From contig CAWJDT010000001.1 of NCBI GenBank assembly GCA_963841735.1, forward strand, positions 1,088,001 to 1,152,000: DNA of 64,000 nucleotides. The letters run 5' to 3'. The stretch's first letter is position 1; each line of letters begins with the position of its first letter. The DNA comes from an uncultured Actinomycetes bacterium (lineage in GTDB: Bacteria > Actinomycetota > Thermoleophilia > RBG-16-64-13). The notes under the pieces are model-generated. The model did no database searches, was not told where the DNA came from, and saw only the letters and a program-made list of their open reading frames with translations. Positions 5,417 through 63,105 of this stretch are shown piece after piece. Position numbers and translations under genes: made by a program.

Positions 5417-5537
5417 ACGCGGGCTCCTCGGGCGTAAGGCGTGCGCGCCGCCGCCCTCAAAGATGAGGCCGACACCCGGTGATGGGGCGGGCTCATGCTG
5501 CAAGAGCGCGCTGAATGGGCATTCCGGCCCCTGAGCG

Positions 5538-8378: not shown

Positions 8379-8424
8379 TCACCTCCCACCGCGTTTGGGC
8401 TGGGCCTGCAGGTTAAGTCCTCTT

Positions 8425-8452
8425 ACTATAAAACACCTAGCGCTGATGTCAC
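8425..8452 (-). promoter_or_regulatory. Putative sigma70-type promoter for the S8 peptidase
   Basis: Minus strand GTGACA-N16-TATAGT, upstream of the GGAGGTGA RBS. Confidence 0.4.
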
Positions 8453-8500
8453 CAGTGGTTTCTGCTCTTGTTTGGAGTGAGTCCGCGGCGTCTGCAACCG

Positions 8501-8567
8501 TTGAGTCTGGCCCCGGCCTACCCCCGAACTATCCCAAAGACGCGAAAACCCGGCCTCATGGCCCGGA
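8501..8567. repeat. Junction repeat, copy R1
   Basis: CCCCCGAACTATCCCAAAGACGCGAAAACCCGGCC closely matches the copy at 23447-23482. Confidence 0.8.
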
Positions 8568-8590
8568 CCCCCGCGGCGAGGCGGGGGTCC
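8565..8590 (-). terminator. GC hairpin after moxR
   Basis: GGACCCCCGC-N6-GCGGGGGTCC perfect 10-bp inverted repeat right after the stop codon. Confidence 0.55.
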
Positions 8591-8594
8591 GTCG

Positions 8595-10959: not shown

Positions 10960-12293
10960 CAGGCCACCGCGGCTTCGTCGGAGGTTGCTTCCACCGCTGC
11001 CGCGGCCGCTTCATCATCTCCGGATGTCGCGGGCCGGCTGATCTGGTGCCAGCGCACGCCGGGCGCGTGGGGGGCCTGGCTCTGCGCGCCCAGGTGGAAC
11101 CCCAGGACGCGTCTTTGCGCCCTGGCGAGATCGTCCATCAGCAACTCGATGGCCGGCGATGCCTCGCCCACAACGAAGACCAGGGTGCCGCCGAACCCCA
11201 GTTTGCTGCGCTCGCGGTCGAAGAAGTCGACGAATACGTGGTCCACGTCCGCGGTGGTCTTGGCAAGCGCCTCCAAGATGAGCGCAAGGTGGGCATTGCC
11301 GCTACTCGGCGCGATGCACGCGGGGTGCTGAGTGTCGGCCAACTTGGTGTTGGCGAAGAACCCGGTCTGCACATCTCTCTCGAGAAGGTGGCGGGCTACG
11401 GAAGCGGCCGTGCTGATCCCCAGTTCGAGATCCTCTTGAGATCGGTCCGCAAAGCTGTCAATAGCCAAGAACACGTCGACCTTGAGGTCGGTGGTGAATT
11501 CAAACAGCTTCACCTGGAGCGCTCGGTTGCGCGCAGTCGCCTTCCAGTGGATGCGGCGCGGGCTGTCGCCGTGCTCATACTCGCGCACCCCCATGAGGCG
11601 CGACGGATCGTCGAACACGCGCCGCTCCGACTTGGCGTCGCCCAGATGGGAGAGCGAGGGGATGCTGAGTTCTGTGAGCGTATACATGCGCGGATAGACT
11701 ATGAGGTGATCGATGTCGGACTGCACACGGCTACGTGGATGGAGACCGAAGATGTCGCCGGATGTCACCGTGAGGGGACCCAGACGATAGTAGCCGCGGG
11801 CCGACGAGTTCAGCCGCTGAGTGAAGGTGGCGGCAGAGTACCAGAGTAGAGGAGTCGATTGAGACAGAGTCACAAAGCCCGGCCGCTCCGCCGCTTCGGC
11901 CAACGGGTCCCCGCCGGCCCCGGCCGCGGGGCGGCCGGGCTGAAAGGATGGACCGGCCGGCAGGCCGGTGGACGTGGTCGCGGGAGTCACCAGCGAAGCC
12001 GGCACCTCGTCCTGGATCTCGATCCAAGGGAGCGGGAGTAACTTGCGATTGACCACGCGTAGCGTCAAGAACACTTCGTCACCGGGGAATACCCGTTGCT
12101 CGCTGAGCCGGCGCTCGCAAGTAACGCCCTTCAGACATAGATAGCTCCACAGCTTGGCCACGAGAGCCGCGGACAGCGCCAATCCAAGGAGCACCACGAT
12201 CGCCGAGTAACCGGCCCACGCAGCCAGTGCGAGTGCCCCGAAGCCTGTGATGATGACGGCGTTGTGAAGGAGGGGGCTAACGGGTCTTGCCAT
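10959..12293 (-). CDS. DUF58-domain protein
   Basis: RGYYRLGPL..SGDIFGL, LIVYP and GVREYEHGDSPRRIHWKATAR. Confidence 0.9.
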   Translation of the reverse strand: MARPVSPLLHNAVIITGFGALALAAWAGYSAIVVLLGLALSAALVAKLWSYLCLKGVTCERRLSEQRVFPGDEVFLTLRVVNRKLLPLPWIEIQDEVPASLVTPATTSTGLPAGPSFQPGRPAAGAGGDPLAEAAERPGFVTLSQSTPLLWYSAATFTQRLNSSARGYYRLGPLTVTSGDIFGLHPRSRVQSDIDHLIVYPRMYTLTELSIPSLSHLGDAKSERRVFDDPSRLMGVREYEHGDSPRRIHWKATARNRALQVKLFEFTTDLKVDVFLAIDSFADRSQEDLELGISTAASVARHLLERDVQTGFFANTKLADTQHPACIAPSSGNAHLALILEALAKTTADVDHVFVDFFDRERSKLGFGGTLVFVVGEASPAIELLMDDLARAQRRVLGFHLGAQSQAPHAPGVRWHQISRPATSGDDEAAAAAVEATSDEAAVA

Positions 12294-21710: not shown

Positions 21711-23414
21711 TGTCAAGTCCCGGTACCCGCTTTACAGTTTGGCTCCGGTACCTTCTTTACAGTCCCTTCGGCCTCGATCGGGATTTGCGATTTCTTCTAG
21801 GAGGCCTTGAGCTTCCTCGGCCGGCCCTTGGGAACGCCGAAGGCCCCGTGCTCCTTGCTTCGGTCGTGCCGAACGGGATGGGTGCGGATGAGCTTGCCCG
21901 CCGCCCAGATCTGGACCGTGTCTCCGGCGAGCCGCACCTCCACCTGCTTGCCGGCACAGGCGGTGCTCACGTGGTAGGCGGTGCCGGCGAAACTGAGATC
22001 GCCCCGGGAATCCACCTGGCGTAGCACCGCTGGATGGGTCCTGGATCGGACTCCGGCCCCTTGAGGCCGCCGGCGTAGGGCAGGCTCCTCCGCCTCGTTC
22101 TTGTGCTTGCGAGCCAAAGTGGCGACGAGCACGCCCCGGTGGAAGATGCTGACCAGACCGTCGGCGCCGAACTCAGCTTCCACCGTCTCTCCGCCCAGGA
22201 AGCGGCCCACGGTGTAGTCGGCTCCGGCGAGGCGCATGCGCCCGTTTGCGCTCACCTTGCGCCTGGCTCGCCGACTGTGAGGCCCGAGCTCGGCATCTGG
22301 TGCTTCGTCTTCTTGGGGAAGGACAGGCTCGAACCTCTCCAGGTTGTCACCCGTGAACCGGTCGGCCGGCGGGACCATGCCGATGCCCTGGTGGGGTCGC
22401 TCGGTGTTGTAGAAAGCCACCCAGACGTCCAGCTCGGCCTGGGCCTCCTCGGGGCCGGCAAAGACCCGGCCTCGCAAGAACTCAGACCTCACGGTCTTGT
22501 GGAAGCGCTCCACCTTGCCGGTGGTGGTGGGCGAGTTAGGCGCGGTTAGGAGATGGCGGATGCCGTTCTCCCGGCAGATGCGATCGAAGAGCACTTCACC
22601 GGGGCGGGGACCAAACCGGCTGGAGAACACCTTGCCGTTGTCGGTGAGGATCTGATCGGGAACACCGTAGCGGCGAAGAGCCGAAGCCAACGCTTCGCAG
22701 ACCGGTCGGGCGGTGGCTCGGAAAGCAAGAAGCGCAGAGATGCAAAAGCGGGAGTGATCGTCCAGGCCGCTCACGAGCTTGAGTTCCGAGCCGTCCGTGA
22801 GCATCACTCCGCCCATGACGTCCATCTGCCAGAGCTCCATGGGCCGACTCCGCTCCCAGCGGCGGTAGTCCTCCCGGCGTTTCTTGCGCTTCTTTGGGTC
22901 GATGAGACCGTGGCGGCAAAGACAGCGGTAGATGGAGGAACGCCCCGGCGGAGGATCGACCCCCTCGCGCAAGAGCTGATGACGGATGCTGCGCGGTCCC
23001 CAGAATGGACGCATCCGCCGGAGTTCCACCACCCGGGCCACCACGTCGGGTGCCATCTGGTGCGGGCAGTTCCCCGGCCGACAGGAATGATCTACCAGGC
23101 CCGCCAGTCCCGCGCGGGCATAGCGCCTAAGCCAGTTGTGCACCGTCTGGCGGGTCACGCCGTAGCGGTGAGCTACCTCGGTCACGGAGGCCCCGCCCAA
23201 GACCTCCAGGATGGCTTTGTGCCGTTGTTCCACGAGTCCCAGCCTGACAAGCACGATGACGACCTCCCCCGATAGCAGCCATTTCTCATGCATATCGGAG
23301 GATTGGGACCGGAGGCCCAGGTCTCAAGGGTGTAAAGCAGGTACCGGAGCCGCGTCCCGAAACTGTAAAGCACCTACCGGAGCCAATGTGTCAAGTATGT
23401 ACCGGGACTACACA
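21711..23414 (-). mobile_element. IS481-family insertion sequence
   Basis: TGT...ACA ends; imperfect terminal inverted repeats TGTCAAGTCCCGGTAC / TGTGTAGTCCCGGTAC; internal repeated GGTACCGGAGC-like binding sites; no clear target duplication. Confidence 0.88.
21797..23293 (-). CDS. IS481-family transposase
   Basis: N-terminal HTH; WQMD, DDHSR, TDNG and GKVERFH DDE motifs; YNTERPHQGI; duplicated C-terminal beta domain. Confidence 0.92.
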   Translation of the reverse strand: MHEKWLLSGEVVIVLVRLGLVEQRHKAILEVLGGASVTEVAHRYGVTRQTVHNWLRRYARAGLAGLVDHSCRPGNCPHQMAPDVVARVVELRRMRPFWGPRSIRHQLLREGVDPPPGRSSIYRCLCRHGLIDPKKRKKRREDYRRWERSRPMELWQMDVMGGVMLTDGSELKLVSGLDDHSRFCISALLAFRATARPVCEALASALRRYGVPDQILTDNGKVFSSRFGPRPGEVLFDRICRENGIRHLLTAPNSPTTTGKVERFHKTVRSEFLRGRVFAGPEEAQAELDVWVAFYNTERPHQGIGMVPPADRFTGDNLERFEPVLPQEDEAPDAELGPHSRRARRKVSANGRMRLAGADYTVGRFLGGETVEAEFGADGLVSIFHRGVLVATLARKHKNEAEEPALRRRPQGAGVRSRTHPAVLRQVDSRGDLSFAGTAYHVSTACAGKQVEVRLAGDTVQIWAAGKLIRTHPVRHDRSKEHGAFGVPKGRPRKLKAS

Positions 23415-39576: not shown

Positions 39577-41215
39577 CTACCTTGATAGGAACCCGGTCTG
39601 CGCCACCGATCGCACCCGGATGGCCGCTTCATTGGCCACCGGGCAGTAGTGCTCGCATACGCCGCAGCCGCTGCAACGCTCGGAGATGACGCGGGGGAGT
39701 TTGACGCCCGCGTGTTGGTCACCGCCCTGGCCTTGGCCACCGCTCTGCCCGCTGCCTCCCGTGTCGAAGACGATCGCCTTGTCGGGGATGGGGCAGAGTT
39801 CCTGGCACACCAGGCAGTCACGGCCTTCCGACCAGGGGATGCAGGTGTTGTGATCGATGTAGGCGCGGCCGATGACCTTGAGCCGCTTCTCTTCGAGGCT
39901 GAGCGCGCGGATGGCCTGGGTAGGGCAGACCTTGCCGCATTCGTTGCAGCTCCAGTCGCAGTAGGCGCGGCGGTAGTCCATCTGCGGGGTCATGAAGCCC
40001 TCGACGCCGGCGTCGAAGACCGCCGGCTGGATGACGTTGGTGGGGCACACCTTCATGCACTCGGCGCAGCGGGCGCAGGTGGCCATGAAGTCCAGCTCCT
40101 GGCGGGCACCGGGGGGCCGGATGAGGAACTTGTTCCGCTGGATGCGCCCCAGCCCGGTGTAGAGGAAGAAGCCACCCACGAAGGCCAGGCCGCCCGCTTT
40201 GAGCAGAGCCCGCCGGCTGGGGTCGTGCACGTGCTGCTTGCGAGGTCTGCGGCCCCAGTGGATGGCCCCGCGAGAGCAGGCGTCGGCGCATTCCAGGCCG
40301 GCCTCACAGCGGGAGCAGTCGGTAGAGCGGCCTCCGTCACGGACGGCGTCCATGGGGCAGGCGGCGACGCACGACTCGCAGAGGGAGCAAGCATGGTCGT
40401 CGACCACCCTGCCGAAGAGCGCTCCTCGGCCGATCAGGCCCAGGAGAGCGCCCAGCGGGCAGAGGTGGCGGCACCACAGGCGGCGCTCTATCCACGAGAC
40501 GGCGAGGATAACCACGAACATGATCAGCATGACCAGTTGCAGCTTGTAGGCGAGACCATCGGGAAAGACAAGACGGCCGGTCAGAGCGCCGGTCACCGAG
40601 TCGACGCCGCCGCGCAGCGGCGGCGCCAGATACAGCAGGTCGCCTGCCCAGGCGCAGACCCCGGTCGATGGCGGGGTACACCAGGGTAGTCGCCGCACCG
40701 GGTGAAGAGCGAGAGCGGGTCGAAGAGCAAGAAGACGGCGCTGCCGAACAGGATGAGCATCACCACCACCACGAGCCCGAACAGGGGCACCTGGCGCAGG
40801 ACCTCGCGTGCTCGGGGGCCAGGGTGGCGTTCGCGCCGCGGGCCGAACAGTTCGATCGATGAATCCCAGCGGGCAGACGTAGCCGCAGAAGGCCCGTGCC
40901 GAAGAACAGGGGGCTGAGCAGCACCGGCATCGCCAGCAGGAACTCCCAGCGCAAGACGCCGTTGGCCACGGAATTGACCGCCAGCAGCGGGTCGGCGAGC
41001 AGGAATCCGCCCAGCAGAAGGGTGCCCAGCGGCCAGATGGTCAGGGTCAGAAGAGCGAAGAAGAGGAGAAGAAAGAAGATTTGAAAGAGGCGCCTATACC
41101 GGTGGATGCCGCGCCGGCGGCCCCTCGCCCGGACCCGGGATGCGCGTATCGAATCGGCCCCGGCGTAGCTCGGGGCCTCTGGGCGGCGATCGGTGGCGGG
41201 CTCGTCGCCGGCCAT
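39577..41215 (-). pseudogene. Membrane polyferredoxin (NapH/MauN + MauM/NapG-like), several frameshifts
   Basis: ADPLLA, R.WCRHLCPLGAL, IRPPGA and many CxxCxxCxxxCP motifs spread over three frames. Confidence 0.75.
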
Positions 41216-42280: not shown

Positions 42281-42390
42281 GATGGGCGGTAACGTACCCT
42301 TGTTTGCGAGACTTCTATCGCGGAGACACTAGAGAGGAGAGCGACGGCCGCTTGCCCGGCGAGGGCGGCGCGAAGAGTAAGAAGGTGATC

Positions 42391-43104
42391 ATGGGCAAGG
42401 ACACAGATCCCGCGACCACCCCGGCGGCGGACGAGCCGGTCGCCGGCACGGGCGGGTCGGAGGAGCCGATCGGTCGTCGGGCCTTCATCGGGCTGATGAT
42501 CGCCGGTGTGGCCGCGCTGTTCCTTGGCAAGGATCTGCTCGCTTGGATCGGGCGCCTGGGTGGGGCCCAGAGCTCTCGAGGCACGGAAGGATTCCGCATC
42601 AACAGCGTCGCCCCCGCGCCAGATTTTGTCGAGGATTCCTGGCGCCTGACTGTGGACGGGTTGTTTCGCAAGCCCTTGTCGTTGACCTTCGCAGATTTCA
42701 CTGCCCTCCCACAGGAAGAGCAGACTCAGGACTTCTACTGCGTGGAGGGCTGGGGTGTGGCCGATGTCGTGTGGAAGGGAGTGACCGTGCGGGAGTTGAT
42801 GGGCCGGGCCGAAATTGACCCGTTGGCTACACATCTGATCTTCCATTCGGGCGACTCGGCGCATTACACCGACTCTCTTACCATCGAGGAGGCCATGAGT
42901 CCCCACACCCTGCTCGCCCACGGTTTGAACGGTGACCCGCTGATTCCCGGCATGGGCAGCCCCGTCCGGCTGATCATCCCCGGCAAATACGGATACAAGT
43001 GCGTCAAGTGGGTGGTGCGGGTGGAGGCCGTCGTTTTGGGTCCCGGAGGCTACCTGGGATACTGGGAGGAGCGCGGCTACTCGGCGGACGCGACCATCTC
43101 ATGA
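42391..43104 (+). CDS. Molybdopterin-dependent oxidoreductase (sulfite oxidase/MsrP-like)
   Basis: GRRAF Tat-like motif, DFYCVEGW, WKGV and GSPVRLIIPGKYGYKCVKWV...GYWEERGY. Confidence 0.88.
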   Translation: MGKDTDPATTPAADEPVAGTGGSEEPIGRRAFIGLMIAGVAALFLGKDLLAWIGRLGGAQSSRGTEGFRINSVAPAPDFVEDSWRLTVDGLFRKPLSLTFADFTALPQEEQTQDFYCVEGWGVADVVWKGVTVRELMGRAEIDPLATHLIFHSGDSAHYTDSLTIEEAMSPHTLLAHGLNGDPLIPGMGSPVRLIIPGKYGYKCVKWVVRVEAVVLGPGGYLGYWEERGYSADATIS

Positions 43105-43772
43105 ACAGGTGGCGGCGGATCGAACGAGGGGCGCACTGGCTTTATGCCCTGCTCTTCATCATCTGTTTGGTGAGCGGGCTGCTGATGTGGATCCCGTCCA
43201 CCCGTGAACTGATCGGGGGCGCCAGGCTCGATATCTCCCAGCGTCACGCAGCGACAGGGTTCGCGATGGTGGCGATGCCGCTGCTCATGCTGGTGATCTT
43301 CGACCGGCGGCGACTACGGAGCGGGCTGCGGCAGATCAATCGATGGAGCGTCGATGACCGGCGCTGGTTCCGGGCGGCCCTGCGGGGCCGGTCGCTGCGG
43401 GGCGGCGCCATGCCCCCTCAAGGCAGATTCAACGCTGGCCAGAAGGCCACTACCGTCCTGGTAGCCGCGATGGCGGTGGGCTTTGTCGTTACCGGAGGGT
43501 TGTTGTTGGGGAAGGCCGGTCTACCGGCCTGGTTGGTGTCGCGGGCGTTCTGGCTGCACGGCTTCTTGGCTATCGCCGGGTTGGCGTTGCTGGCCGGGCA
43601 TCTAGGCATGGCCTTGCTGACCAGACACGGGCGCGCATCGCTAAGGGCCATGTTCAACGGTAGACTGGCCGAAGACGTCGCCCGCGAGCGCCATTCCTTG
43701 TGGTGGGCTAAGGCGGAGAAGGAGCGGACTGACGCTGAGGCCGGTGAGCCTGTAGACGGAGGTAGCGGATGA
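43101..43772 (+). CDS. FdnI-like cytochrome b membrane partner
   Basis: ERGAHW, His ligands and PPQGRFNAGQK; ATGA overlap with the upstream gene. Confidence 0.82.
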   Translation: MNRWRRIERGAHWLYALLFIICLVSGLLMWIPSTRELIGGARLDISQRHAATGFAMVAMPLLMLVIFDRRRLRSGLRQINRWSVDDRRWFRAALRGRSLRGGAMPPQGRFNAGQKATTVLVAAMAVGFVVTGGLLLGKAGLPAWLVSRAFWLHGFLAIAGLALLAGHLGMALLTRHGRASLRAMFNGRLAEDVARERHSLWWAKAEKERTDAEAGEPVDGGSG

Positions 43773-54156: not shown

Positions 54157-54240
54157 GATGGCTCCTGTTCGTGTCGCGCTTCTGGTGAGCTGTATCTCCA
54201 CAAAACGGCGGTGTTGAAACACTGTTGCTATGCTGTGGCC

Positions 54241-55215
54241 ATGTCGAGCGAGCGATTACTTTCGGCTGCGCCGGCCGAGCCGTTGGCCCGGGAGTTGGCC
54301 TTCGCGCTCTCCGCGGGCGGTTTCAGCTACCGGTTGGCTCCGGCGCGGATCATGGATGGGCTCTTCGAGACCATGACCGCTCTCCGCGACCGGGGGTCGC
54401 TTGCGCCCGAGCTCTACGACGAGTACAAGCCCTACTTCCGATTCATGCCACCCCCGGAGGTGGCCGGACCGCGCACCGTGATCGTGGTCGCGTGGCCGTC
54501 ACTGCCCGACAAGGTACGTTTTCACTTTGACGCCGGGCCTCTAGACGCTGTCATCCCGCCCACGTATGTCTCCTCCCAAGAGCGGGAGAAGTGCCTGCAG
54601 ATAATGCGCTCGGTGCTAGACCCGGCCGGTTTCTCGGTGGGCCGGGCAACGGGTCCGGTCAAGCTGCTTGCCGTGCGCACGGGCCTGGCGCAATACGGCC
54701 GCAACAACCTCGCCTACGTCACGGGCTTGGGCAGCTATGCGCGGTTGAACGCGTTTTGCACCGACGCTGATCTGGGGGCGGTGGATTATGAGCGTAAAGG
54801 GAGCGAGCTCATGAGCTGCTGCCCTCCGTGCCGCAACTGCCATCATGTCTGTCCTACCGGCTGCATCCCTCATGCCGGCACCGTTATCGACGCAACACGC
54901 TGCCTGAGTTACTTCAGTGAGCACGAAGGCGATTGGCCGGATTGGCTCGACCCCAGAGCTCACAAGTGTCTCGTGGGCTGCATGCGCTGTCAGGAGATGT
55001 GCCCGGCCAACCGGTACTACCTGCGGAGCGAGAAGGTGGTGGCCGAGTTCGATCGGGCGGAGACCTGGATGATCCTCCAGGATCTTCCTACGGAACAGCT
55101 GCCCGTTGCTCTTCGGGAGAAGCTCGCGGCGCTGGACCTAGACGACTACTCGCCGGTCCTGGGCCGGAATCTCCGGGCGTTGCGGGACGCCTTGAGCGAG
55201 CCGGCTAAGGTCTGA
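54241..55215 (+). CDS. Epoxyqueuosine reductase (QueG)-like Fe-S protein
   Basis: KLLAVRTGLAQYGRNN, GS, CxxCxxCxxxCPTG, RCLSY and GCMRCQEMCP. Confidence 0.7.
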   Translation: MSSERLLSAAPAEPLARELAFALSAGGFSYRLAPARIMDGLFETMTALRDRGSLAPELYDEYKPYFRFMPPPEVAGPRTVIVVAWPSLPDKVRFHFDAGPLDAVIPPTYVSSQEREKCLQIMRSVLDPAGFSVGRATGPVKLLAVRTGLAQYGRNNLAYVTGLGSYARLNAFCTDADLGAVDYERKGSELMSCCPPCRNCHHVCPTGCIPHAGTVIDATRCLSYFSEHEGDWPDWLDPRAHKCLVGCMRCQEMCPANRYYLRSEKVVAEFDRAETWMILQDLPTEQLPVALREKLAALDLDDYSPVLGRNLRALRDALSEPAKV

Positions 55216-55270: not shown

Positions 55271-55314
55271 TTGATTCCTGGTGCATACTGGAGTATATAA
55301 GCAATCATGCAAAT
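55271..55314 (+). promoter_or_regulatory. Promoter with overlapping imperfect palindrome (ArsR-type operator candidate)
   Basis: TTGATT-N17-TATATA followed by TATAAGCA-ATCA-TGCAAATA, in an AT-rich island. Confidence 0.5.
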
Positions 55315-55729
55315 ACAGGACAAGGACACTTCAGTGGACGGTGGCTCGGTCACCGCGGACATGCGGCCCCTGTTCGTCATGCACGCCGAGATGTGTCAGG
55401 CCTTGGCCAACCAGCATCGGCTGGCCATCATGTACACGCTCAAGGATGGGGAGAAGTGCGTGGGCGATATCGCCGCCGAGCTTGGTATCTCGGTGCACAA
55501 TGTCTCCCAGCACCTGCGCATCTTGCGGCAAAGGCTGCTGGTCCGCTCACGCAAAGAAGGTCAGACCGTCTACTACTCCGTCACTAATCCCAAGTTCGTA
55601 CAGGCCTGCGGGCTCATACGCGAAGCCCTGGTCGAGGAGCATCGGGCGGAGGGGGAATCTCTTCGGGTTGCGGGGCTCTTGGATTTGCCGGGCGTTACAT
55701 TCGGCCCGGATGCGGGCACAAACAGCTAA
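55307..55729 (+). CDS. ArsR/SmtB family regulator (true start may be 55334 or 55361)
   Basis: AEMCQALANQHRL, VSQHLRIL, RKEGQTVYY and QACGL. Confidence 0.9.
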   Translation: MQIQDKDTSVDGGSVTADMRPLFVMHAEMCQALANQHRLAIMYTLKDGEKCVGDIAAELGISVHNVSQHLRILRQRLLVRSRKEGQTVYYSVTNPKFVQACGLIREALVEEHRAEGESLRVAGLLDLPGVTFGPDAGTNS

Positions 55730-55794
55730 GGCGGCGTCGTAGGCGACGACTGCTCTCGGGAACGACAATGCCGACTACAGATGGAGGCGGTTCC

Positions 55795-56040
55795 ATGGAT
55801 CTCAGTTCACTGCAGGGTCAGAAGGTCGTCGATGCTAGGGGCACGTCATGCCCAGGGCCCATCCTGGCCGCCAAGAAGGGCATGGCCGACGTCAAGGTGG
55901 GTGAGATCATGGAGGTTCTTGCCACCGACTCCGGCACTCAGAAGGACCTGCCCGCCTGGTCGAAGAAGATGGGGCACGAATACCTCGGCTTTGTCGAAGA
56001 GCCCGGCTATCTGAAGCTGTTCGTCAAGAAGCTCAAGTAG
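55795..56040 (+). CDS. tusA: TusA/SirA-family sulfur carrier
   Basis: VVDARGTSCPGP, VLATD and DLPAW. Confidence 0.9.
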   Translation: MDLSSLQGQKVVDARGTSCPGPILAAKKGMADVKVGEIMEVLATDSGTQKDLPAWSKKMGHEYLGFVEEPGYLKLFVKKLK

Positions 56041-56057
56041 TCGCCGAGGAGCCTGAG

Positions 56058-56492
56058 GTGAGCGAGGGCGGAGGCTTCGCGCCAAAGATACTGGTCTTCT
56101 CGACCCACAACATCTCCGATCCGGGGATCGACCTGGCCGGCAGTTCGCACATGCACTACTCGCCGACCGTGGAGGTCATCAGCCTGCCCTGCTCCAGCGG
56201 CATCAAGCCGAGTTGGATCGCTTACGCCATCGAGCGGGGGTTCGACGGGGTGTTCATCGCGGCCGACGGCGAGGAGTGCGCCTTCTTGCCTGATTGCAGC
56301 CACCGCACCGCCAAGATCATGGCCGACTCCCAGGAGCTGCTAAAGGAGAAAGGCGGCGACCCTAGGCGGGTGAAGATGGCGGCCGTGTGCTCGGTGTGTG
56401 CCGATCCGTTCGTCAACTACATGCGCGAGTTCTCGGCCATGCTTGCTGAGTTGGGGCCGTCCGTCGGACCGGCAGGGACGGAGGCGGCATGA
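56058..56492 (+). CDS. MvhD-like hydrogenase iron-sulfur subunit (variant Cys pattern)
   Basis: PKILVF..DLAG, LPCS and GFDGVFI; N-terminal Cys residues replaced, extra CSVC. Confidence 0.8.
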   Translation: MSEGGGFAPKILVFSTHNISDPGIDLAGSSHMHYSPTVEVISLPCSSGIKPSWIAYAIERGFDGVFIAADGEECAFLPDCSHRTAKIMADSQELLKEKGGDPRRVKMAAVCSVCADPFVNYMREFSAMLAELGPSVGPAGTEAA

Positions 56493-59182
56493 GCGCCAAG
56501 TACGACGCTCTCGTGATCGGCAGCGGCATCGGGGGCATGGAATCCGCCCTGAAGTTGGGCGACATGGGCTACAAGGTGTTGATCGTCGAACGTGAAGGCA
56601 GCGTCGGCGGCAAGATGATCCTGCTCAGCAAGGTGTTCCCCACCTTGGACTGCGCCAGCTGCATCTCCACCCCCAAGATGGGGGCCACCATCCATCATCC
56701 AAACGTGACGGCGCTCACTTACTCCGAGGTAGACGGCATCCAGAGTGATGGCAACGGAGGCTTCAAGGCCCAGATTCGCCAGAAGCCGCGCTTTGTCGAT
56801 GAGGTCGCCTGCACGGGCTGTCGCCAATGCGAGATGGTCTGCAACGTGGCGGTGCCCGACGAGTTCAACGCCGGCATGGTGTCCCGGCGGGCCGCCTACA
56901 TCGCGTTCCCTCAGGCCGTGCCGAAGAAGGCAGTGGTCGAAAGGGCGGGGACTTCACCCTGCACGTCCGCGTGCCCGGCTGGGATCAAGCCCCACGGCTA
57001 CATAGCACTCATCCGTAGCGGTCAATATGAGAAGGCCTTCGAGCTGGTGTGTGAAGCCACGCCCCTGGTTGGCAGTCTGGGCCGGGCCTGTTACGCGCCT
57101 TGCGAAGAGGAATGCTCCCGGGGCGGTCTGGAGGGGTCGCTCTCCATCCGCAGGCTCAAGCGCTTCATTGCCGACAGGCACTATGCGCAAGACAGGGTGT
57201 CAGTGGAGGCCCCTCCGTTCAACGGCAAGAAGGTGGCCATCGTAGGGTCTGGGCCGGCCGGGCTGACCGCGGCCTGGCATCTGGCCCGCAAGGGATACGA
57301 GGTCAAGATCTTCGAAGCGGCTTCGCAGCCCGGCGGCATGTTGCGTCTGGCTCTGCCGCCATACCGGCTGCCCAACGAAGTGGTCGATCAGGATGTGGCC
57401 AATGTCACAGGCATCGGGGTGACCATCGAGACGGACTCTCGGGTGGAGGAGCTCGAGGCACTGAAGGCCGCCGGTTACGATGCCATCCTGCTGGCGCTGG
57501 GTACACACCAGGCCACCAAGCTCCGGGTCCCCGGGGAGGAGCTGGCCGGCGTAATGCGTGCCGCCGACTTCTTGAAGGCCGCCAAGCTGGGTGAGGAACT
57601 CGACGTCAAGGGCAAACGGGTGGTGGTGATCGGGGGCGGCAACGTCGCTGTCGACGTAGCCCGCACCGCTCTGCGTGAGGGCGCTTTGTCGGCTCAAGCC
57701 CTTAGCCTGGAATCGTATAAGGACATGCCTGCCCATCCGCAGGAGGTTGCGGACGCCAAGGCCGAGGGGGTCACGTTCAAGAACTCCTGTGGAGTGCGTG
57801 AGTTTGCCGGGCAGGACAGGGTGCGAAGCGTGGAGCTGATGCGCTGCGTCGCCGTGTTTGACAGCAAGGGCCGTTTCAGCCCGCAGTACGCCGGAGAGGG
57901 CGGCGGCGGCATTGAGTGCGACATAGCGGTGGTGGCAGCGGGCATGCGCCCGGACTCGGGCGAGTTCGGGCTCCCTATCAACAGGAACGGCACCATCGAA
58001 GTCCACGGCGGCACTCTGCAGACCAGCCTGCCCCACGTATTCGCCGCGGGCGACGTGGTGCTGGGGCCCTCAATGATAACGTCCGCCGCCGGGCAGGGCC
58101 GGCGGGCGGCTCATATGATCGACCGCTGGCTCCAGGGCGAGCCTTTCGACGTGGCCGAGTTCGATGCCGTACTGCCGCCCGTGAACAAGGACGACGTCTT
58201 CGCCAGGCAGGCGACTGTCAGCGAGATCCCGCCGGCGCAGCAACGGGGGGGTGGGAAGTTGGCCCCGGGCGAGTTCTTCCCCGACGAGGAGACCATGACC
58301 GAGGAGGAGGCTCTACAGAGTGTGAGCCGCTGCCTGGACTGCGGTGTGTGTTCCGAGTGCCAGGCGTGCGTCAAGGTCTGCCCGGCTGAGTGCATCCATC
58401 TGAACATGCGGGGCAGTGAGATGGAGGTCGAAGTTGGAACGGTCGTCCTGGCCACCGGCTACACTCTGTTTCCCGCCGATTTGAAGCCGCAGTATGGCTA
58501 CGGCAAGTACAAGAACGTCATCACCGGCATGCAGATGGACAGGCTCCTGGCGCCCACTCGTCCCTACAACGGCGTGCTGCGGCCGGGGGACGGCAAGGTG
58601 CCCGACAACATCGCCTACATCCTATGCACCGGTTCGCGCGACGAGACTCTGGATAACCCGCTTTGCTCGCGGATCTGTTGCATGTACTCCATCAAGCAGA
58701 ACCAGCTGATCATGGGCGCCCTGCCGCTGGCCGACGTCACCGTCTACTACATGGACGTGCGCGCGGTGGGCAAGGGCTACGACGAGTTCTACGAGCAGGC
58801 TAAGGACATGGGAGCCAACTTCGTGAAGGGTCGAGTGGCTGAGGTCACGGAGAAGGAGAACGGCAACCTGGTTCTCAAGTACGAGGACATCGAGAACGGT
58901 ACGCTGGTCGAGACCGAGCACGATCTGGTGGTGTTGGCTGTCGGCGTTCGCCCGAACAACGACGTGCGGCGGCTCTTCGCCGACGGCGACCTGGGCCTGG
59001 ACGACTACGCCTATGTGGACGAGCCCGAGGAGGACTTGAACCCCGGGGCCACTAACATGCCTGGCGTCTACGTGGCCGGCTCGGCGTCGGGCATCAAGGA
59101 CATCCCCGATTCCATCCTTCACGCGGGGGCCGCGGTGGCACAGGCCGCCGCCCATCTCGAGAAGGCGAAGGCGAAGCTGTGA
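56489..59182 (+). CDS. HdrA/QmoA-like flavoprotein with inserted GltD-like NAD(P)H module
   Basis: GSGIGG and KVFPTLDCASC; insert PCTSACP..GRAC..PCEEEC, GSGPAG, GGGNVA; C-terminal CTGSRD..CSRICC. Confidence 0.88.
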   Translation: MSAKYDALVIGSGIGGMESALKLGDMGYKVLIVEREGSVGGKMILLSKVFPTLDCASCISTPKMGATIHHPNVTALTYSEVDGIQSDGNGGFKAQIRQKPRFVDEVACTGCRQCEMVCNVAVPDEFNAGMVSRRAAYIAFPQAVPKKAVVERAGTSPCTSACPAGIKPHGYIALIRSGQYEKAFELVCEATPLVGSLGRACYAPCEEECSRGGLEGSLSIRRLKRFIADRHYAQDRVSVEAPPFNGKKVAIVGSGPAGLTAAWHLARKGYEVKIFEAASQPGGMLRLALPPYRLPNEVVDQDVANVTGIGVTIETDSRVEELEALKAAGYDAILLALGTHQATKLRVPGEELAGVMRAADFLKAAKLGEELDVKGKRVVVIGGGNVAVDVARTALREGALSAQALSLESYKDMPAHPQEVADAKAEGVTFKNSCGVREFAGQDRVRSVELMRCVAVFDSKGRFSPQYAGEGGGGIECDIAVVAAGMRPDSGEFGLPINRNGTIEVHGGTLQTSLPHVFAAGDVVLGPSMITSAAGQGRRAAHMIDRWLQGEPFDVAEFDAVLPPVNKDDVFARQATVSEIPPAQQRGGGKLAPGEFFPDEETMTEEEALQSVSRCLDCGVCSECQACVKVCPAECIHLNMRGSEMEVEVGTVVLATGYTLFPADLKPQYGYGKYKNVITGMQMDRLLAPTRPYNGVLRPGDGKVPDNIAYILCTGSRDETLDNPLCSRICCMYSIKQNQLIMGALPLADVTVYYMDVRAVGKGYDEFYEQAKDMGANFVKGRVAEVTEKENGNLVLKYEDIENGTLVETEHDLVVLAVGVRPNNDVRRLFADGDLGLDDYAYVDEPEEDLNPGATNMPGVYVAGSASGIKDIPDSILHAGAAVAQAAAHLEKAKAKL

Positions 59183-61092
59183 GCGCGCAGGGCGACAACG
59201 TCGTCATGCCGGGCGTCGGCGCGCCGGGCGCGGCCGCGTCAGGTGCCGCCGCGCAGGCCGGCGCCACGGCCGCCAAGCGGCGCATCGGGGTGTACGTCTG
59301 CCACTGCGGCGGCAACATCTCCGACTATGTGGACGTGGAGAAGGTGGTGGCTTCGGTCCAGTCCGATCCCGACGTAGTGGTGGCCAGGACCGCCATGTTC
59401 ACCTGCTCCGACGCCAGCCAGCAGGACATCATCAACGACATCAAAGAGCAGAAGCTCGACGGCATCGTGGTGGCCTCGTGCTCGCCCAAGTTGCATACGT
59501 TCACCTTCAGGGACGTCGCGAAACGGGCCGGTCTGAGTCCCTACCAGTACACCCAGGTGAACATCAGGGAGCAGTGCTCCTGGACTCACACCGACGACCA
59601 CGAAGGGGCTACGCGCAAGGCCTACCAGCTGGTGAAGGCCGGCGTCGGCCGTACCCGCCTCACCGTGCCCTTGGAGCCGATAGTTGTGGAGACCGTGCCC
59701 AAGGCCGTCGTGATCGGCGGGGGTATCGCCGGGCTGCGAGCGGCACTGGGCCTGGCAGAGATCGGGTTGGCGGTGTTCCTGGTGGAGAGGGAAGACCACC
59801 TGGGCGGCTGGATCGGCGGCTTCGGTGAGATGTACCCGCACGGCAAGAACGGCCGGGAGTTGATAGCCAAACTGATAGAGAAGACACGTAAGCACCCAGG
59901 CGTCACCACGTTCACCAACGCCGAGGTGACCGGCAAGGCCGGCAGCTTCGGCAACTACGAAGTATCGATCCGGGTGAACGGCGGCGCTGAGCAGGAGTTG
60001 GCGGCCAAGGCCCCAGCGGAGTCGCAGGCCAAGGCGCCCGAGACCATCACGGTGCAGGCCGGTTCCATCATCGTGGCCACTGGGTTTGACACATACGCGG
60101 TCTCCGAGGATGAATTCGGCTACGGATTCGAAGGGGTGCTGACGCTCCCCGACTTCAAGCGCCTGGTCGACGACAGTGAAGGCCCGCTTCGCTACAACGA
60201 CAAGGCGGTCGAGGTGGTGGCCTACATCTACTGCGTCGGCAGCCGGCAGCGGGGCGACGTGGAGGATCCCAACGAATACTGCTCCCGCTACTGCTGCACG
60301 GCAGCCGTTCACGCTTCGATCCAGGCGGCGGCCAAGCCGGGCCGGGTGCACCAATATCATCTTCACAGGGACGTGCGCACCTACGGCAACTACGAGCTGC
60401 TGTACAACGAATGCCAGAACCAAGGCGCCGTCTTTCTCAAGGTGCCCGACGACGAGCCGCCCACGGTGCGCAAAGACCCCGAGAGCGGCAGGCTTCTTGT
60501 GACCACCCGCGATCTCCTGAGCGAAGGCGAAGAAGTGGAGATTCCGGCCGACCTGGTGGTGCTGGTCACCGGTATGGTGCCGCGGTTCAACCACGACCTG
60601 ATCAAGAGCTTGAAGCTGCCGGTGGGCCGGAGCGGGTTCTTCAACGAGATCCACCCCAAGCTGCGCCCGGTGGAGACCGTGGTAGACGGGGTCTACATCT
60701 GTGGCGCCTGCCAAGCGCCGAGGAACTCGGCCGAGGCGGTGGCCTCGGGCCTGGCGGCGGTGACGCAGGCCGCGTCCATCCTTAAGCGCGGATTCGCGGA
60801 GCTCGACCCGCTGGTCGCCTTCGTCGACACCTGTGCGTGTACATGGTGCGGGCTGTGCTTGGAGGCCTGCCCGTACGACGCACCGCGGCAGACGGAGGAG
60901 AACGGCAAGGCCGTGGCCTTCATCGACAAGACCGCGTGCAAGGGCTGCGGTGGCTGCGTGCCCGTTTGCCCGAAGGATGCCATCGATTTGGAGGGCTACA
61001 CCGACGCGCAGATGCGGGCCATGATCGACGGCCTGCTCGACATACCGGCTGAGGCGCCCGCGGGGGCGCCCGAGGAGGTGGCGGCGAGATGA
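59179..61092 (+). CDS. hdrA: HdrA/QmoB-like flavoprotein
   Basis: IGVYVCHCGGNI, VVASCSP, NIREQCSW, GGGIAG, CVGSR..CSRYCC, HPKLRPV and two C-terminal 4Fe-4S motifs. Confidence 0.88.
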   Translation: MSAQGDNVVMPGVGAPGAAASGAAAQAGATAAKRRIGVYVCHCGGNISDYVDVEKVVASVQSDPDVVVARTAMFTCSDASQQDIINDIKEQKLDGIVVASCSPKLHTFTFRDVAKRAGLSPYQYTQVNIREQCSWTHTDDHEGATRKAYQLVKAGVGRTRLTVPLEPIVVETVPKAVVIGGGIAGLRAALGLAEIGLAVFLVEREDHLGGWIGGFGEMYPHGKNGRELIAKLIEKTRKHPGVTTFTNAEVTGKAGSFGNYEVSIRVNGGAEQELAAKAPAESQAKAPETITVQAGSIIVATGFDTYAVSEDEFGYGFEGVLTLPDFKRLVDDSEGPLRYNDKAVEVVAYIYCVGSRQRGDVEDPNEYCSRYCCTAAVHASIQAAAKPGRVHQYHLHRDVRTYGNYELLYNECQNQGAVFLKVPDDEPPTVRKDPESGRLLVTTRDLLSEGEEVEIPADLVVLVTGMVPRFNHDLIKSLKLPVGRSGFFNEIHPKLRPVETVVDGVYICGACQAPRNSAEAVASGLAAVTQAASILKRGFAELDPLVAFVDTCACTWCGLCLEACPYDAPRQTEENGKAVAFIDKTACKGCGGCVPVCPKDAIDLEGYTDAQMRAMIDGLLDIPAEAPAGAPEEVAAR

Positions 61093-61382
61093 GCACCGCC
61101 AACGTCGCCAACGCCGCCAACGTCCCAGGGCCGGCCGATGCGGGCAACCGTGACGTCCGCGAGGTCATCCGCGACGAGCACCTCATGCGTGGTCGCATTC
61201 TCAAGCTTCTTCAGGATGGGCCCCTGACCATACCCGAGATCGCCGAAGGTCTGGGCAGGCCCACCTTCGAGGCTACCTTCTGGGTGATGGGAATGCGCAA
61301 GTACGGCTACGTGGCTGAAGTCAAAGAGGTTACCGACGAAGGCTACTTCCAATATCAGGCGATCGAGAGGGACGAACCATGA
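61089..61382 (+). CDS. Small winged-HTH protein
   Basis: ILKLLQDGPLTIPEIAEGLG...MGMRKYGYV; translationally coupled on both sides. Confidence 0.7.
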   Translation: MSTANVANAANVPGPADAGNRDVREVIRDEHLMRGRILKLLQDGPLTIPEIAEGLGRPTFEATFWVMGMRKYGYVAEVKEVTDEGYFQYQAIERDEP

Positions 61383-62509
61383 CCACCAGGGTGAATCCCC
61401 GCCTTATCGACGACTTGGCACTTTACGGGGCCGAGGACGTGCAGAAGTGCTACAACTGCGGCAACTGCACCGCTACGTGCTCGCTCACCGACCAGTCGTA
61501 CAACTTCCCCCGCAAGTGCATGCATGCCCTCCAGATGGGCATGGAGAAGAAGCTCGAGGGCAGTCTTGAACCCTGGCTCTGCTACTACTGCGGCGAGTGT
61601 TCGGCGGAGTGCCCGCGCGAGGCGCAACCGGGCGAGACCATGATGAGCCTGCGCCGCTGGCTCACCTCGCGCTACGATTTCACCGGCATCGGCCGCATGT
61701 TCTACCGGCGGCCTGTGACCGAGATCGTCGCGGTGGTGGTGGTCGCGCTCCTCACCGGCCTGGGGTTTACCCTGTTCGGCGTGTATGGCGGCGACATCAA
61801 CCACTACACCGGGGTCGATGCCTTTCTTCCTGGGGACACGATCCACATTTTTGACTGGATCCTAGCGGCCGTCTTGCTGGCCTTCCTGCTGCCCAACTGT
61901 GCCCGTATGTGGTGGTTCACTTTGGGCCGGGAGACCCTGGGCAAGTCGCGCACCGGGCGGCTGTCGCCCCTGGCCTATCTCAAGGGGTTCTACCTCTTCC
62001 CGTTGCACTTCGTGACGCAGAAGCGCATGGCGCAGTGCAAGCAGAAACGTCCTTGGGTGGTGCACCTGATCCTCATGCTCAGCTACGTGACCATGCTGAT
62101 ACTCATCATGTTCTTCCTGAAGCGCATGTGGGCCGGACCCAGCATCGACTGGCGAGTGCACGTGTTCGGATATGCGGCCAGCGCCGGGCTGCTGGGCGCT
62201 ACCGTCTGGGCGCTTCGGGGACGCATCAAGAAGGCGGAGGAGCACTACAAGCATTCGCACGAGAGCGACTGGATGTTCCTGGTGCTTCTGATCGTCGTGG
62301 CGGCGACTGGGGTCCTGCAGCATGTGCTCCATCGTGCAGGCGTCGATGTCGCGGCCAACGTCGCGTACGTTGTGCACCTCATGGCGGTGGTGCCCATGCT
62401 TGGCTTGGAAGTCCCCTTCAGCAAGTGGTCACACATGGCCTATCGACCGCTTGCCATGTACTTCTCGGCACTCCACGGGCAGGTGGAGCCGCTGACCCGT
62501 TGTCGATGA
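61379..62509 (+). CDS. QmoC-like Fe-S/membrane heme-b subunit
   Basis: CYNCGNCTATC and WLCYYCGECSAECP, then about 6 TM helices with His residues, and PFSKWSHMAYRP. Confidence 0.82.
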   Translation: MTTRVNPRLIDDLALYGAEDVQKCYNCGNCTATCSLTDQSYNFPRKCMHALQMGMEKKLEGSLEPWLCYYCGECSAECPREAQPGETMMSLRRWLTSRYDFTGIGRMFYRRPVTEIVAVVVVALLTGLGFTLFGVYGGDINHYTGVDAFLPGDTIHIFDWILAAVLLAFLLPNCARMWWFTLGRETLGKSRTGRLSPLAYLKGFYLFPLHFVTQKRMAQCKQKRPWVVHLILMLSYVTMLILIMFFLKRMWAGPSIDWRVHVFGYAASAGLLGATVWALRGRIKKAEEHYKHSHESDWMFLVLLIVVAATGVLQHVLHRAGVDVAANVAYVVHLMAVVPMLGLEVPFSKWSHMAYRPLAMYFSALHGQVEPLTRCR

Positions 62510-62622
62510 AGTGCCGAGCGACGCCCAGACCGAGTCTGCCGCGTGACAGCCGGACCTACTTCGACGCATCTAACGACAGCCGACAGCGCCCCAGGTAATT
62601 AGAGAAGCGAAAGGAAGAGCAA

Positions 62623-63105
62623 GTGGACACCAGCAAGAAAACGATCATTCTTTTCAGCGGTGATTTTGACAAGGCGATGGCAGGGTTCATCATCGCCAAC
62701 GGCGCCGCTGCCATGGGCGACGAAGTAACCATGTTCTTTACGTTCTGGGGCCTCAACCTGCTCCGCAAACCCAAGAAGGTCAAGATCCCCGGCAAGAAGA
62801 CCTTCCTGCAGGTCATGTTTGGGAAGATGATGCCCCGTGGCCCGGGCCACCTAGGGCTGTCCAAGATGAACTTCTGCGGCCTCGGCGCTCCCCTCATGAA
62901 GGTGGTCATGAAGTCGGCCAACGCGATGACGCTGGAGCAGTTGATGGATAGCGCTCGTGAGCAAGGTGTGAAGTTGATCGCCTGCACCCTCTCGATGGAC
63001 ATCCTGGGCTTCAAGAAGGAAGAGCTTCTGGACGGCATCGAGTATGCAGGCGTGGCCGCGTATCTGGGCGAGGCCGACGAGGCGAACGTCAACCTGTTCA
63101 TCTAG
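62623..63105 (+). CDS. DsrE2/DrsE-like sulfurtransferase
   Basis: FSGDFDKA, MFFTFWGL, IACTLSMD and AGVAAYL. Confidence 0.88.
   Translation: MDTSKKTIILFSGDFDKAMAGFIIANGAAAMGDEVTMFFTFWGLNLLRKPKKVKIPGKKTFLQVMFGKMMPRGPGHLGLSKMNFCGLGAPLMKVVMKSANAMTLEQLMDSAREQGVKLIACTLSMDILGFKKEELLDGIEYAGVAAYLGEADEANVNLFI

Follow-up and report, generated by a model that had tools for sequence, protein, structure and literature searches.

What does a quinone-linked redox complex of the Qmo type do when the genes beside it encode sulfur carriers and none of the usual partner enzymes? We encountered this question in a 64,000-nucleotide stretch of DNA, here called the window (contig CAWJDT010000001.1 of assembly GCA_963841735.1, positions 1,088,001 to 1,152,000), from an uncultured bacterium of the Actinomycetota. 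Anaerobic energy conservation depends heavily on complexes of the Qmo and Hdr types, and to our knowledge every characterised member ends in a known partner, whether HdrB, AprAB, a hydrogenase or a formate dehydrogenase. The operon described here encodes an electron-splitting core and a quinone anchor, to which the sole added substrate-handling parts are sulfur carriers and an adaptor subunit with altered cysteines. It is a real, conserved and uncharacterised operon, and it looks like the chassis of the hydrogenase-linked Mvh-Qmo-Hdr cassette, in which TusA, DsrE2 and a small winged helix-turn-helix (wHTH) protein take the place of the hydrogenase. Which genes it contains, how their domains are built, its synteny and its kinship to the hydrogenase cassette are matters of direct observation. 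Its chemistry, as we argue below, may be the coupling of carrier-bound sulfur to NAD(P)H and menaquinone.

The open reading frame (ORF) listing and family scans place eight genes, all on the + strand, at 55307-63105 of the window:

55307-55729, + strand: ArsR/SmtB regulator (140 amino acids), the first gene; NCBIfam HTH_metalloreg, E 1.1e-25, 89.3 bits against a cut-off of 55
55768-56040, + strand: TusA (90 amino acids); PF01206, E 9.2e-22, 77.1 bits against a cut-off of 28.6
56058-56492, + strand: MvhD/FlpD-like protein (144 amino acids); PF02662, E 7.3e-29, 100.7 bits
56489-59182, + strand: HdrL-type HdrA with a GltD/NfnB-like insert (897 amino acids); Pfam domains and HdrA alignment
59179-61092, + strand: second HdrA (637 amino acids); match to HdrA 5odc_A, E 8.5e-117
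61089-61382, + strand: small wHTH protein (97 amino acids); weak HTH_20/TrmB matches only, AlphaFold2 winged helix
61379-62509, + strand: QmoC-like protein (376 amino acids); NF038018, E 1.9e-51
62623-63105, + strand: DsrE2 (160 amino acids); PF13686, E 5.1e-63, 212.1 bits against a cut-off of 25

A first-pass annotation, made from the sequence and its ORFs, had proposed the co-directional and partly overlapping order ArsR-TusA-MvhD-HdrA(GltD)-HdrA-wHTH-QmoC-DsrE2, and both analyses agree with it. It had also set the start of the locus at 55271; the end at 63105 holds, but the frame of the regulator begins at 55307, and the other two frames there have no family match. Neighbouring genes overlap by 4 bp at four junctions (56489/56492, 59179/59182, 61089/61092 and 61379/61382). 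On the 3' side of dsrE2, the opposite strand encodes a NifU_N protein, an Mrp/NUBPL ATPase, two CbiA-Fer4 proteins and a DUF5320 protein, and because these genes are convergent, the operon ends at dsrE2. A scan for promoters and terminators found sites no commoner than in shuffled sequence, and a query of public sequencing runs with the 7.8-kb operon listed no run, and none of RNA. Taken together as a single operon, the eight genes would specify a Qmo-shaped, membrane-anchored redox complex.

The electron-splitting core consists of two HdrA proteins, which match methanogen HdrA with E values of 8.5e-117 (637 residues) and 1e-103 (897 residues). The longer one aligns over residues 6-152 with HdrA 145-290 and over residues 617-894 with HdrA 289-569 (5odc_A); it contains the flavin adenine dinucleotide (FAD) domain of HdrA and is without the HdrA N- and C-terminal domains. 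Its Cys58, in an FPTxDCxxC motif, aligns with the cysteine/selenocysteine position of HdrA. The inserted ferredoxin domain is interrupted, precisely between its two CxxCxxCxxxC motifs, by an insert of about 464 residues (about 153-616). This insert is an NfnB/GltD-like module for NAD(P)H, FAD and two [4Fe-4S] clusters, with the Pfam domains Fer4_20 and Pyr_redox_2. Its nearest solved relatives are 9bov_A, 8oh5_C and NfnB 4ylf_B/5jca_L of Thermotoga and Pyrococcus (E 1e-58 to 1e-87), that is, NADPH-binding NfnB and Stn-type subunits, which supports the GltD-like NAD(P)H module recognised in the first-pass annotation.

The 637-residue HdrA supplies the N- and C-terminal domains that its partner is without. 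It comprises an N-terminal cysteine-cluster domain, the FAD domain and a C-terminal ferredoxin domain for two [4Fe-4S] clusters (Pfam Fer4 at 547-611), with residues 29-265 corresponding to HdrA 7-243 (8rvu_a) and residues 286-620 to HdrA 313-650 (5odc_A). No inserted ferredoxin domain, no match to the FlpD/MvhD domain and no FPTxDCxxC motif were found in this protein.

The membrane anchor resembles QmoC. It scores 175.6 bits over the full length of the qmoC model NF038018, below the cut-off of 300, and its N-terminal part is HdrC-like with two [4Fe-4S] clusters, matching 7bkb_C at E 9.7e-10. It keeps two CxxCxxCxxxC motifs and has five to six hydrophobic segments, and four histidines (His156, His229, His333 and His352) are invariant across homologues of 27-100% identity; it probably binds two haems b. 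Two genes of the MqnA/MqnD family, which belong to the futalosine route, are present in the genome and make menaquinone a plausible quinone.

The MvhD-like subunit is where the operon departs most visibly from its hydrogenase-linked relatives at the level of single residues. Among its five cysteines (Cys45, Cys74, Cys80, Cys111 and Cys114), Cys45 and Cys74 alone match canonical cysteines of methanogen MvhD (5odc_D). The CCNWC and GGC cysteines of methanogen and hydrogenase-linked MvhD are missing, and the protein has gained Cys80 and a C111-S-V-C114 motif, this CxxC replacing 'SASEG'. All five cysteines are invariant in 120 of the 120 nearest homologue clusters, a shallow test as the clusters are close (72-100% identity). 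The CxxC is found in both subtypes of the cassette described below and is absent from hydrogenase-linked MvhD. We infer from this pattern that the gained CxxC is a candidate site of thiol or persulfide exchange.

TusA has a single cysteine, Cys28, within an S-C-P-G-P motif; it matches PF01206, carries the C-P-x-P motif of the family and keeps C28-P29-G30-P31 invariant in 13 cassette sequences. On the equivalog model for Escherichia coli TusA it reaches 44.6 bits, below the cut-off of 78. The TusA proteins of aligned insert-bearing loci are 73-90% identical to one another, and by tblastn the cassette TusA is the sole one detectable in the genome. DsrE2 is soluble, no hydrophobic segment having been found in it, and it passes the Pfam model PF13686 while scoring 95.8 bits on the NCBIfam equivalog NF047629 (cut-off 210). 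Its nearest structure is 3pnx_A (E 2.9e-36); Cys121 aligns with the cysteine of that structure and Cys85 does not, which makes Cys121 the candidate active cysteine. Selenium handling was considered as a function and rejected, as the matches of TusA to YedF and of the insert to YgfK were far under cut-offs and weaker than the matches to TusA and to GltD/Nfn.

The small wHTH protein appears to be a further mark of this type of operon. Its gene overlaps each neighbour by 4 bp, and its product has no cysteine, an AlphaFold2 model with a predicted local distance difference test score of 84.4, and three helices followed by a beta-hairpin wing. A Foldseek search returned generic ArsR/MarR-type wHTH folds only (E >= 5.8e-4) and gave no functional lead. 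There are 322 clusters of homologues, and those with a source name are called hypothetical protein or predicted regulator; R70-K71-Y72-G73 is invariant in the homologue alignment. The gene has no tblastn match in 65 related loci of the other type described below and is confined to cassettes of the sulfur-carrier type; its product may be a subunit with a structural or adaptor role. A complex prediction run on TusA, scored as the partner, together with the MvhD-like and wHTH proteins, with a separate alignment for each, gave a score of 0.00, a 'no answer' that is neutral on binding.

To see whether this arrangement recurs, we collected relatives of the QmoC-like protein in two ways (loci are labelled L and genomes G). 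A search within the phylum covered 301 genomes, of which 24, including the window's own genome G000, had a match; close matches were restricted to the family of the window organism. One genome of this set, G030, carries the complete cassette, G089 has dsrE2 placed before qmoC, and G248 and G299 have TusA-MvhD-HdrA-HdrA-wHTH-QmoC without the GltD insert. A cross-species alignment scan gave at least 593 candidate stretches, 578 of which encode a relative. The best 80 loci, with 53-86% identity and from many phyla, were sorted by tblastn with the operon proteins into 15 of the sulfur-carrier type and 65 others. Eleven of the 15 bear the insert (L055-L059, L079, L084, L086, L089, L097 and L102) and four are free of it (L081, L088, L096 and L107). 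After accounting for duplicates (L089 is the contig of L045 in G089, and L064 the contig of L044 in G030), we count 19 distinct cassette loci: the window's own, L043, L049, L052 and the 15. The cassette therefore recurs at 18 further loci.

The gene set is kept closely across these 19 loci. TusA stands directly upstream of the mvhD-like gene in all 16 loci that have upstream coverage, L058, L079 and L088 being cut off. The wHTH gene sits between hdrA2 and qmoC/dsrE2 in 18 loci, the window's included, and went undetected in L107. Of the 19 loci, 15 have DsrE2, which lies either before or after qmoC in all 11 insert-bearing loci and in L043, and a PF02635 DsrE gene adjoins the cassette in two of the remaining four (L049 and L096). 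The first-pass annotation had rested on tusA and dsrE belonging to this cassette, and tusA and a dsrE-family gene are indeed syntenic at homologous loci. When the flanking ORFs of 17 cassette loci were clustered, the cassette genes alone proved to be conserved; the same gene set with differing flanks indicates that the arrangement is not due to chance. Within the phylum the cassette is patchy, since a profile search for the wHTH protein gave matches in 8 of 401 genomes, from three families, and among the 19 loci the sole one outside the Actinomycetota is L102, labelled Gemmatimonadales. In L097 the matches to hdrL, hdrA2, wHTH and dsrE2 fall into many short pieces in different frames, suggesting frameshifts or sequencing errors.

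Some loci carry additional genes. DsrC-like genes (PF04358) lie upstream of the cassette in L057 (1843-2157) and L102 (146-463). The L057 protein has one terminal cysteine, and that of L102 ends in C-x10-C-V, the two-cysteine signature of DsrC; in the genome of L102, a DsrC-like gene is present and no DsrA was found. A 742-residue molybdopterin oxidoreductase is encoded near the cassette in L043 and L057.

The 65 other loci provide the comparison that gives the operon its context. They are without TusA and DsrE2, most have the order HdrA-QmoC-HdrA-MvhD, and in L131 and L132 Pfam scans placed MvhG and MvhA beside MvhD. By tblastn, MvhA and/or MvhG occur in 55 of the 65 loci versus none of the 15 sulfur-carrier-type loci, and the ten without them include the short or cut-off L082, L119, L124 and L130 as well as L095 and L105, in which the genes are ordered differently. 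The window's QmoC is 53-68% identical to the QmoC of this commoner HdrA-QmoC-HdrA-MvhD-MvhG-MvhA cassette. Genome G030, from the same family as the window organism, carries both types, the sulfur-carrier type at L043 (C38) and the Mvh-hydrogenase type at L044 (C19); identity to the window's QmoC is 77% for the former and 68% for the latter. There is thus one chassis of two HdrA proteins, QmoC and an MvhD-type adaptor, with two alternative front ends: a hydrogenase, or TusA, a DsrE-family protein and the wHTH protein. Most sulfur-carrier cassettes also carry the NAD(P)H module in the ferredoxin-docking domain.

A quick maximum-likelihood tree of 84 QmoC rows divided the cassette QmoCs among three clades, all within the radiation of hydrogenase-linked QmoCs, and the window's clade adjoins actinobacterial hydrogenase-linked QmoCs. 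This placement is a hint rather than a result, as it comes from a quick search without the two duplicate contigs and without high-scoring segment pairs of fewer than 300 query residues, a filter that took out L049, L052 and most of the loci that look canonical.

The hydrogenase cassette has been published as 'Mvh-Qmo-Hdr' in Ca. Methanoglobus hypatiae and Ca. M. nevadensis, and the part of that report used here puts forward the hypothesis that electrons from H2 are bifurcated to menaquinone and ferredoxin (PMC10945360). Our operon shares with it the two complementary HdrA proteins, the QmoC-type anchor and the MvhD-type subunit. It differs in being without MvhA and MvhG, in having TusA, DsrE2, the wHTH protein, the NAD(P)H insert and altered MvhD cysteines, and in putting MvhD first and QmoC last.

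Compared with other known systems, the operon again matches in part, and it falls outside canonical QmoABC, HdrABC and sHdr as it does outside Mvh-Qmo-Hdr. Like canonical QmoABC (type I, of sulfate reducers and green sulfur bacteria), it has two HdrA-type flavoproteins and a membrane subunit with HdrC-like clusters and predicted haem b sites. Unlike it, the operon has no link to aprBA, its QmoC is under the equivalog cut-off, and it has the NAD(P)H insert, sulfur-carrier genes and MvhD as a separate 144-residue protein, whereas in type I QmoB an MvhD-like domain is fused at the C-terminus. HdrABC differs by having HdrC together with an HdrB whose CCG domains hold the catalytic non-cubane clusters; no operon product has a CCG match. 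The insert shares with NfnAB/StnABC-type enzymes the NfnB/GltD module with two [4Fe-4S] clusters, FAD and NAD(P)H parts, but it is spliced into the ferredoxin domain of HdrA instead of forming a free subunit.

Type II Qmo has QmoA and QmoB nearer to typical HdrA than to bacterial QmoA/B and occurs whether or not Dsr and Apr are present, and its role is left open in the sections of the paper on which we draw (Neukirchen et al. 2023, PMC10504309); our operon may fit this loose description, as both its HdrA proteins strongly resemble methanogen HdrA and no Dsr or Apr was found in the genome. HdrL of Desulfobacterium autotrophicum HRM2 is described as a fusion of HdrA and glutamate synthase with an NADH-binding part, next to mvhD (PMC2702500). 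The 897-residue HdrA belongs to this type, as it combines HdrA and a GltD-type module in one polypeptide and adjoins mvhD; the HRM2 loci, by contrast, have dsrABC, fdh or hdrBC where the operon has QmoC, TusA and DsrE2, a comparison with HdrL1-3 made by description. In the portion of the sHdr survey considered here, tusA is linked to shdr in 302 of 397 assemblies and dsrE2 occurs in 199 shdr clusters (PMC11094781). sHdr, too, contains an HdrA and is linked genetically to carriers of the TusA and DsrE families, but it uses HdrB1/B2, HdrC1/C2 and lipoate-binding proteins, none of which is among the operon products, and it has neither QmoC nor the NAD(P)H insert. Literature searches, which did not cover subscription journals and supplements, found no description of a TusA/DsrE2-linked Qmo-like operon.

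We then asked which partner enzymes the rest of the genome could offer. The assembly comprises 2.82 Mb in 8 contigs and is 89.7% complete, so that absences from it are provisional. AprA had no match over the cut-off (best 61.4 bits versus 641.75), and DsrA, Sat, DsrC, YeeE/YedE and [NiFe] hydrogenase (PF00374) had no match in the genome. AprA and DsrA were over the cut-off in none of the five other cassette-bearing genomes. The first-pass annotation had described the complex as being without APS (adenosine 5'-phosphosulfate) reductase or HdrBC, and had supposed it distinct from canonical Qmo. The former description is right for the locus, and AprA went undetected in the genome as a whole, but HdrB-like CCG-domain proteins are encoded elsewhere (eight matches at five other genome places, none near the operon). 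The latter is borne out by the missing aprA, sat and dsrA together with the sub-threshold QmoC score.

Two of these other Hdr loci can be described. The one at C1 ~445-449 kb encodes HdrA, MvhD, an HdrC-like protein and a CCG protein. The one at C5 178596-184433 (L135 about 4500-11200) encodes a CCG protein, an HdrA with a GltD-like part, a further HdrA, MvhD and a MetV-like protein (PF12225), and we take it to resemble the acetogen-type MetFV-HdrABC-MvhD (methylene-tetrahydrofolate reductase/Hdr) loci. Its HdrA/GltD gene is split over several frames and may be a pseudogene or an assembly error.

Elsewhere, at C1 1757190-1759435 (L136 6152-8435), another DsrE2-like gene, whose product is 36% identical to the operon's DsrE2, is the first of an operon that also encodes a class-V aminotransferase of the cysteine desulfurase type and a NifU_N/FeS_assembly_P protein, which connects a member of the DsrE2 family with the assembly of Fe-S clusters. 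Just past the end of the window, at L015 1758-5122 (C1 1151758-1155122), lies the cluster convergent to dsrE2, with NifU_N, the Mrp/NUBPL P-loop ATPase, two CbiA-Fer4 ATPases and DUF5320, and a Nitro_FeMo-Co protein is encoded further along it. This cluster is not kept at other cassette loci.

Based on these parts, we propose that the operon encodes a bifurcating or confurcating complex that links carrier-bound sulfane sulfur, NAD(P)H and menaquinone, a proposal whose chances, with its substrate, assembly and flavin chemistry taken together, we put at about half. The two complementary HdrA proteins would form a heterodimer in place of the HdrA homodimer. The HdrL-type HdrA would bind NAD(P)H through its built-in NfnB/GltD module, NAD(P)(H) thereby taking the place of ferredoxin, and the QmoC-type subunit would connect the HdrA pair to menaquinone. 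The altered MvhD-like subunit would hold the docking position that belongs to the Mvh hydrogenase in the sister cassette. In place of H2, the complex would use as its third redox partner sulfane sulfur bound as a persulfide (or thiosulfonate) to Cys28 of TusA and Cys121 of DsrE2, and this sulfur couple would be coupled to NAD(P)(H) and menaquinone/menaquinol by flavin-based confurcation or bifurcation. With a standard potential near -270 mV, the S(0)/H2S couple falls between menaquinone, near -74 mV, and NAD(P), at -320 mV, an order that suits a bifurcating or confurcating flavin.

It is important to note that persulfide as the redox substrate, flavin bifurcation and the running direction are what we infer from the gene content, and that the direction cannot be read from sequence. 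We favour the reductive direction, in which the carriers would catch incoming sulfane sulfur, NAD(P)H and menaquinol would together reduce it to H2S, and the ArsR-type repressor would switch the operon on. This leaning has three grounds: no way is seen to process sulfane sulfur further, the organism is without known sulfur-oxidation systems, and a repressor-type regulator heads the operon. The reductive mode accounts for the larger share of the probability given to the overall proposal, and taken by itself we regard it as possible but doubtful.

The opposite direction takes up the rest of that same probability and is not an addition to it; we judge it unlikely, and it is a serious alternative. 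It would be a true bifurcation, with sulfide oxidised to carrier persulfide at the MvhD-like/HdrA site and electrons passing downhill to menaquinone and uphill to NAD(P)+ (to ferredoxin where the insert is absent). In its favour is the analogy with the sister cassette, in which the MvhD-docked module would be the mid-potential donor (of electrons from H2) and quinone and ferredoxin the acceptors, and the NAD(P)H module occupies the HdrA domain of the low-potential branch. The structure paper on MvhAGD-HdrABC is said to assign the inserted ferredoxin domain of HdrA to that branch. The order of potentials given above would suit this mode as well. Genes for TusA and DsrE2 are, in the part of the sHdr survey used here, usual companions of cytoplasmic sulfur-oxidising systems (PMC11094781). 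What speaks against the oxidative mode is that no enzyme is in place to process the sulfane sulfur on, as there is no DsrAB in the genome and no sHdr-type cluster at the locus, so that the carriers would fill unless sulfur were exported. In addition, we know of no sulfide-oxidising catalytic motif in HdrA or MvhD.

A more specific version would make the CxxC of the MvhD-like protein, beside an Fe-S cluster, a new kind of catalytic site that interconverts sulfide and TusA persulfide and drives bifurcation to menaquinone and NAD(P)+ (ferredoxin where the insert is absent). We consider this distinctly unlikely. If it were true, the operon would let sulfur drive the formation of low-potential reductant with no need for reverse electron transport, and the HdrA-QmoC chassis would accept interchangeable donor modules, either a hydrogenase or sulfur carriers.

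Several observations weigh against carrier-bound sulfur as the substrate. The operon products include none of the known sites at which S-S bonds are cleaved or formed: no CCG/HdrB, DsrK, DsrAB or molybdopterin subunit. Classical MenA went undetected in the genome, and the absences on which the proposal leans are, as stated, provisional. The cassette TusA, being the sole copy, may also carry out housekeeping sulfur transfer, and both the operon of the second DsrE2-like gene with cysteine desulfurase and NifU and the Fe-S assembly-like cluster convergent to dsrE2 fit a biosynthetic role of the carriers. Homology of the regulator, examined below, gives no support for persulfide sensing.

The strongest rival builds on these same points. 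It holds that the complex is an NAD(P)H:menaquinone (perhaps ferredoxin) oxidoreductase with sulfur-free redox chemistry, and that the carriers serve sulfur supply, for instance for the Fe-S clusters or cofactors of this cluster-rich complex, or regulation. The single TusA, the missing S-S-cleaving site, the second DsrE2-like gene in its desulfurase/NifU company and the NifU_N/Mrp/CbiA-Fer4 cluster adjoining dsrE2 are what one would expect under it. It has more difficulty with the comparative data. The equally cluster-rich hydrogenase cassette manages without TusA and DsrE2 (in 0 of 65 loci), the neighbouring Fe-S assembly genes are not kept at other cassette loci, and the extra DsrE or DsrC-like genes at some loci look like a relay and not like a maturation aid. 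Moreover, the insert-free versions would be left without any donor or acceptor module besides quinone and ferredoxin. We therefore regard sulfur supply as the sole role of the carriers as improbable, though ahead of the remaining rivals.

Alternatively, the complex could serve as the electron-input module of a terminal enzyme whose gene lies elsewhere, in the role that QmoABC has for AprAB, with the carriers feeding that enzyme. In the part of the source on which we rely, canonical Qmo does work with a separately folded partner (PMC3333476), and possible partners can be named: the molybdopterin oxidoreductase near the cassette at two loci, and the CCG-domain proteins encoded at other places in the genome. 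Yet comparison of 17 loci showed no partner gene kept next to the cassette, and the CCG proteins belong to other, self-contained Hdr loci, one of them with the MetV-like gene. We consider this reading highly unlikely. Two HdrA-like flavoproteins and a QmoC-like anchor would also fit, in shape, a canonical QmoABC that works with APS reductase to reduce sulfate or oxidise sulfite. This reading is rejected on the QmoC score (175.6 versus 300), on AprA, Sat and DsrA being under the cut-off or unmatched in the genome, on AprA and DsrA passing the cut-off in 0 of 5 other cassette genomes, and on the separate MvhD with altered cysteines.

If carrier-bound sulfur is the substrate, the operon would represent new enzymology for cytoplasmic sulfane sulfur. 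It would also give a function to 'type II' Qmo-like genes in organisms that are neither sulfate reducers nor sulfur oxidisers by known routes, and it would point to a hidden sulfur-cycling capacity in uncultured bacteria of soil and sediment. The hydrogenase-linked sister cassette offers a clean comparative pair for testing the role of the sulfur carriers.

The regulator that heads the operon deserves a separate account. Its orthologues precede tusA in seven loci (L043, L055, L056, L057, L059, L097 and L107), and Cys30 and Cys101 are kept in the orthologues examined. Among solved structures the nearest are HlyU, SqrR and BigR (E 1e-11 to 8e-8), and the protein is below the cut-off both on the BigR model (48.9 bits versus 155) and on the TsoR models. 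Assignment as a persulfide sensor of the SqrR/BigR type was tried and rejected: the 'MC' of SqrR (6o8k) is 'MY' here, so the sensing cysteine aligns with a tyrosine, and in the alignment Cys30 and Cys101 sit away from the SqrR/BigR sensing positions. The regulator may still sense sulfur species through Cys30 and Cys101. An imperfect palindrome at 55282-55311 (overlapping 18-nt arms, 72% complementary) lies across the ArsR start codon and is a possible operator.

Directly upstream of the operon, at 54211-55215 (+ strand), the window encodes a QueG/reductive-dehalogenase-like Fer4_16 protein. A Fer4_16 protein is also found upstream in L055 (54% identity) and went undetected by tblastn at the other cassette loci. 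Further away in the window, a fragment of an MsrP/SorA-like molybdoenzyme followed by an FdnI-like cytochrome b (42304-43772, + strand) and a NapG/NapH-like ferredoxin-type protein (39577-40698, - strand) are under family cut-offs, and an IS481-family transposase (21797-23293, - strand) scores 278.7 bits against a cut-off of 224.

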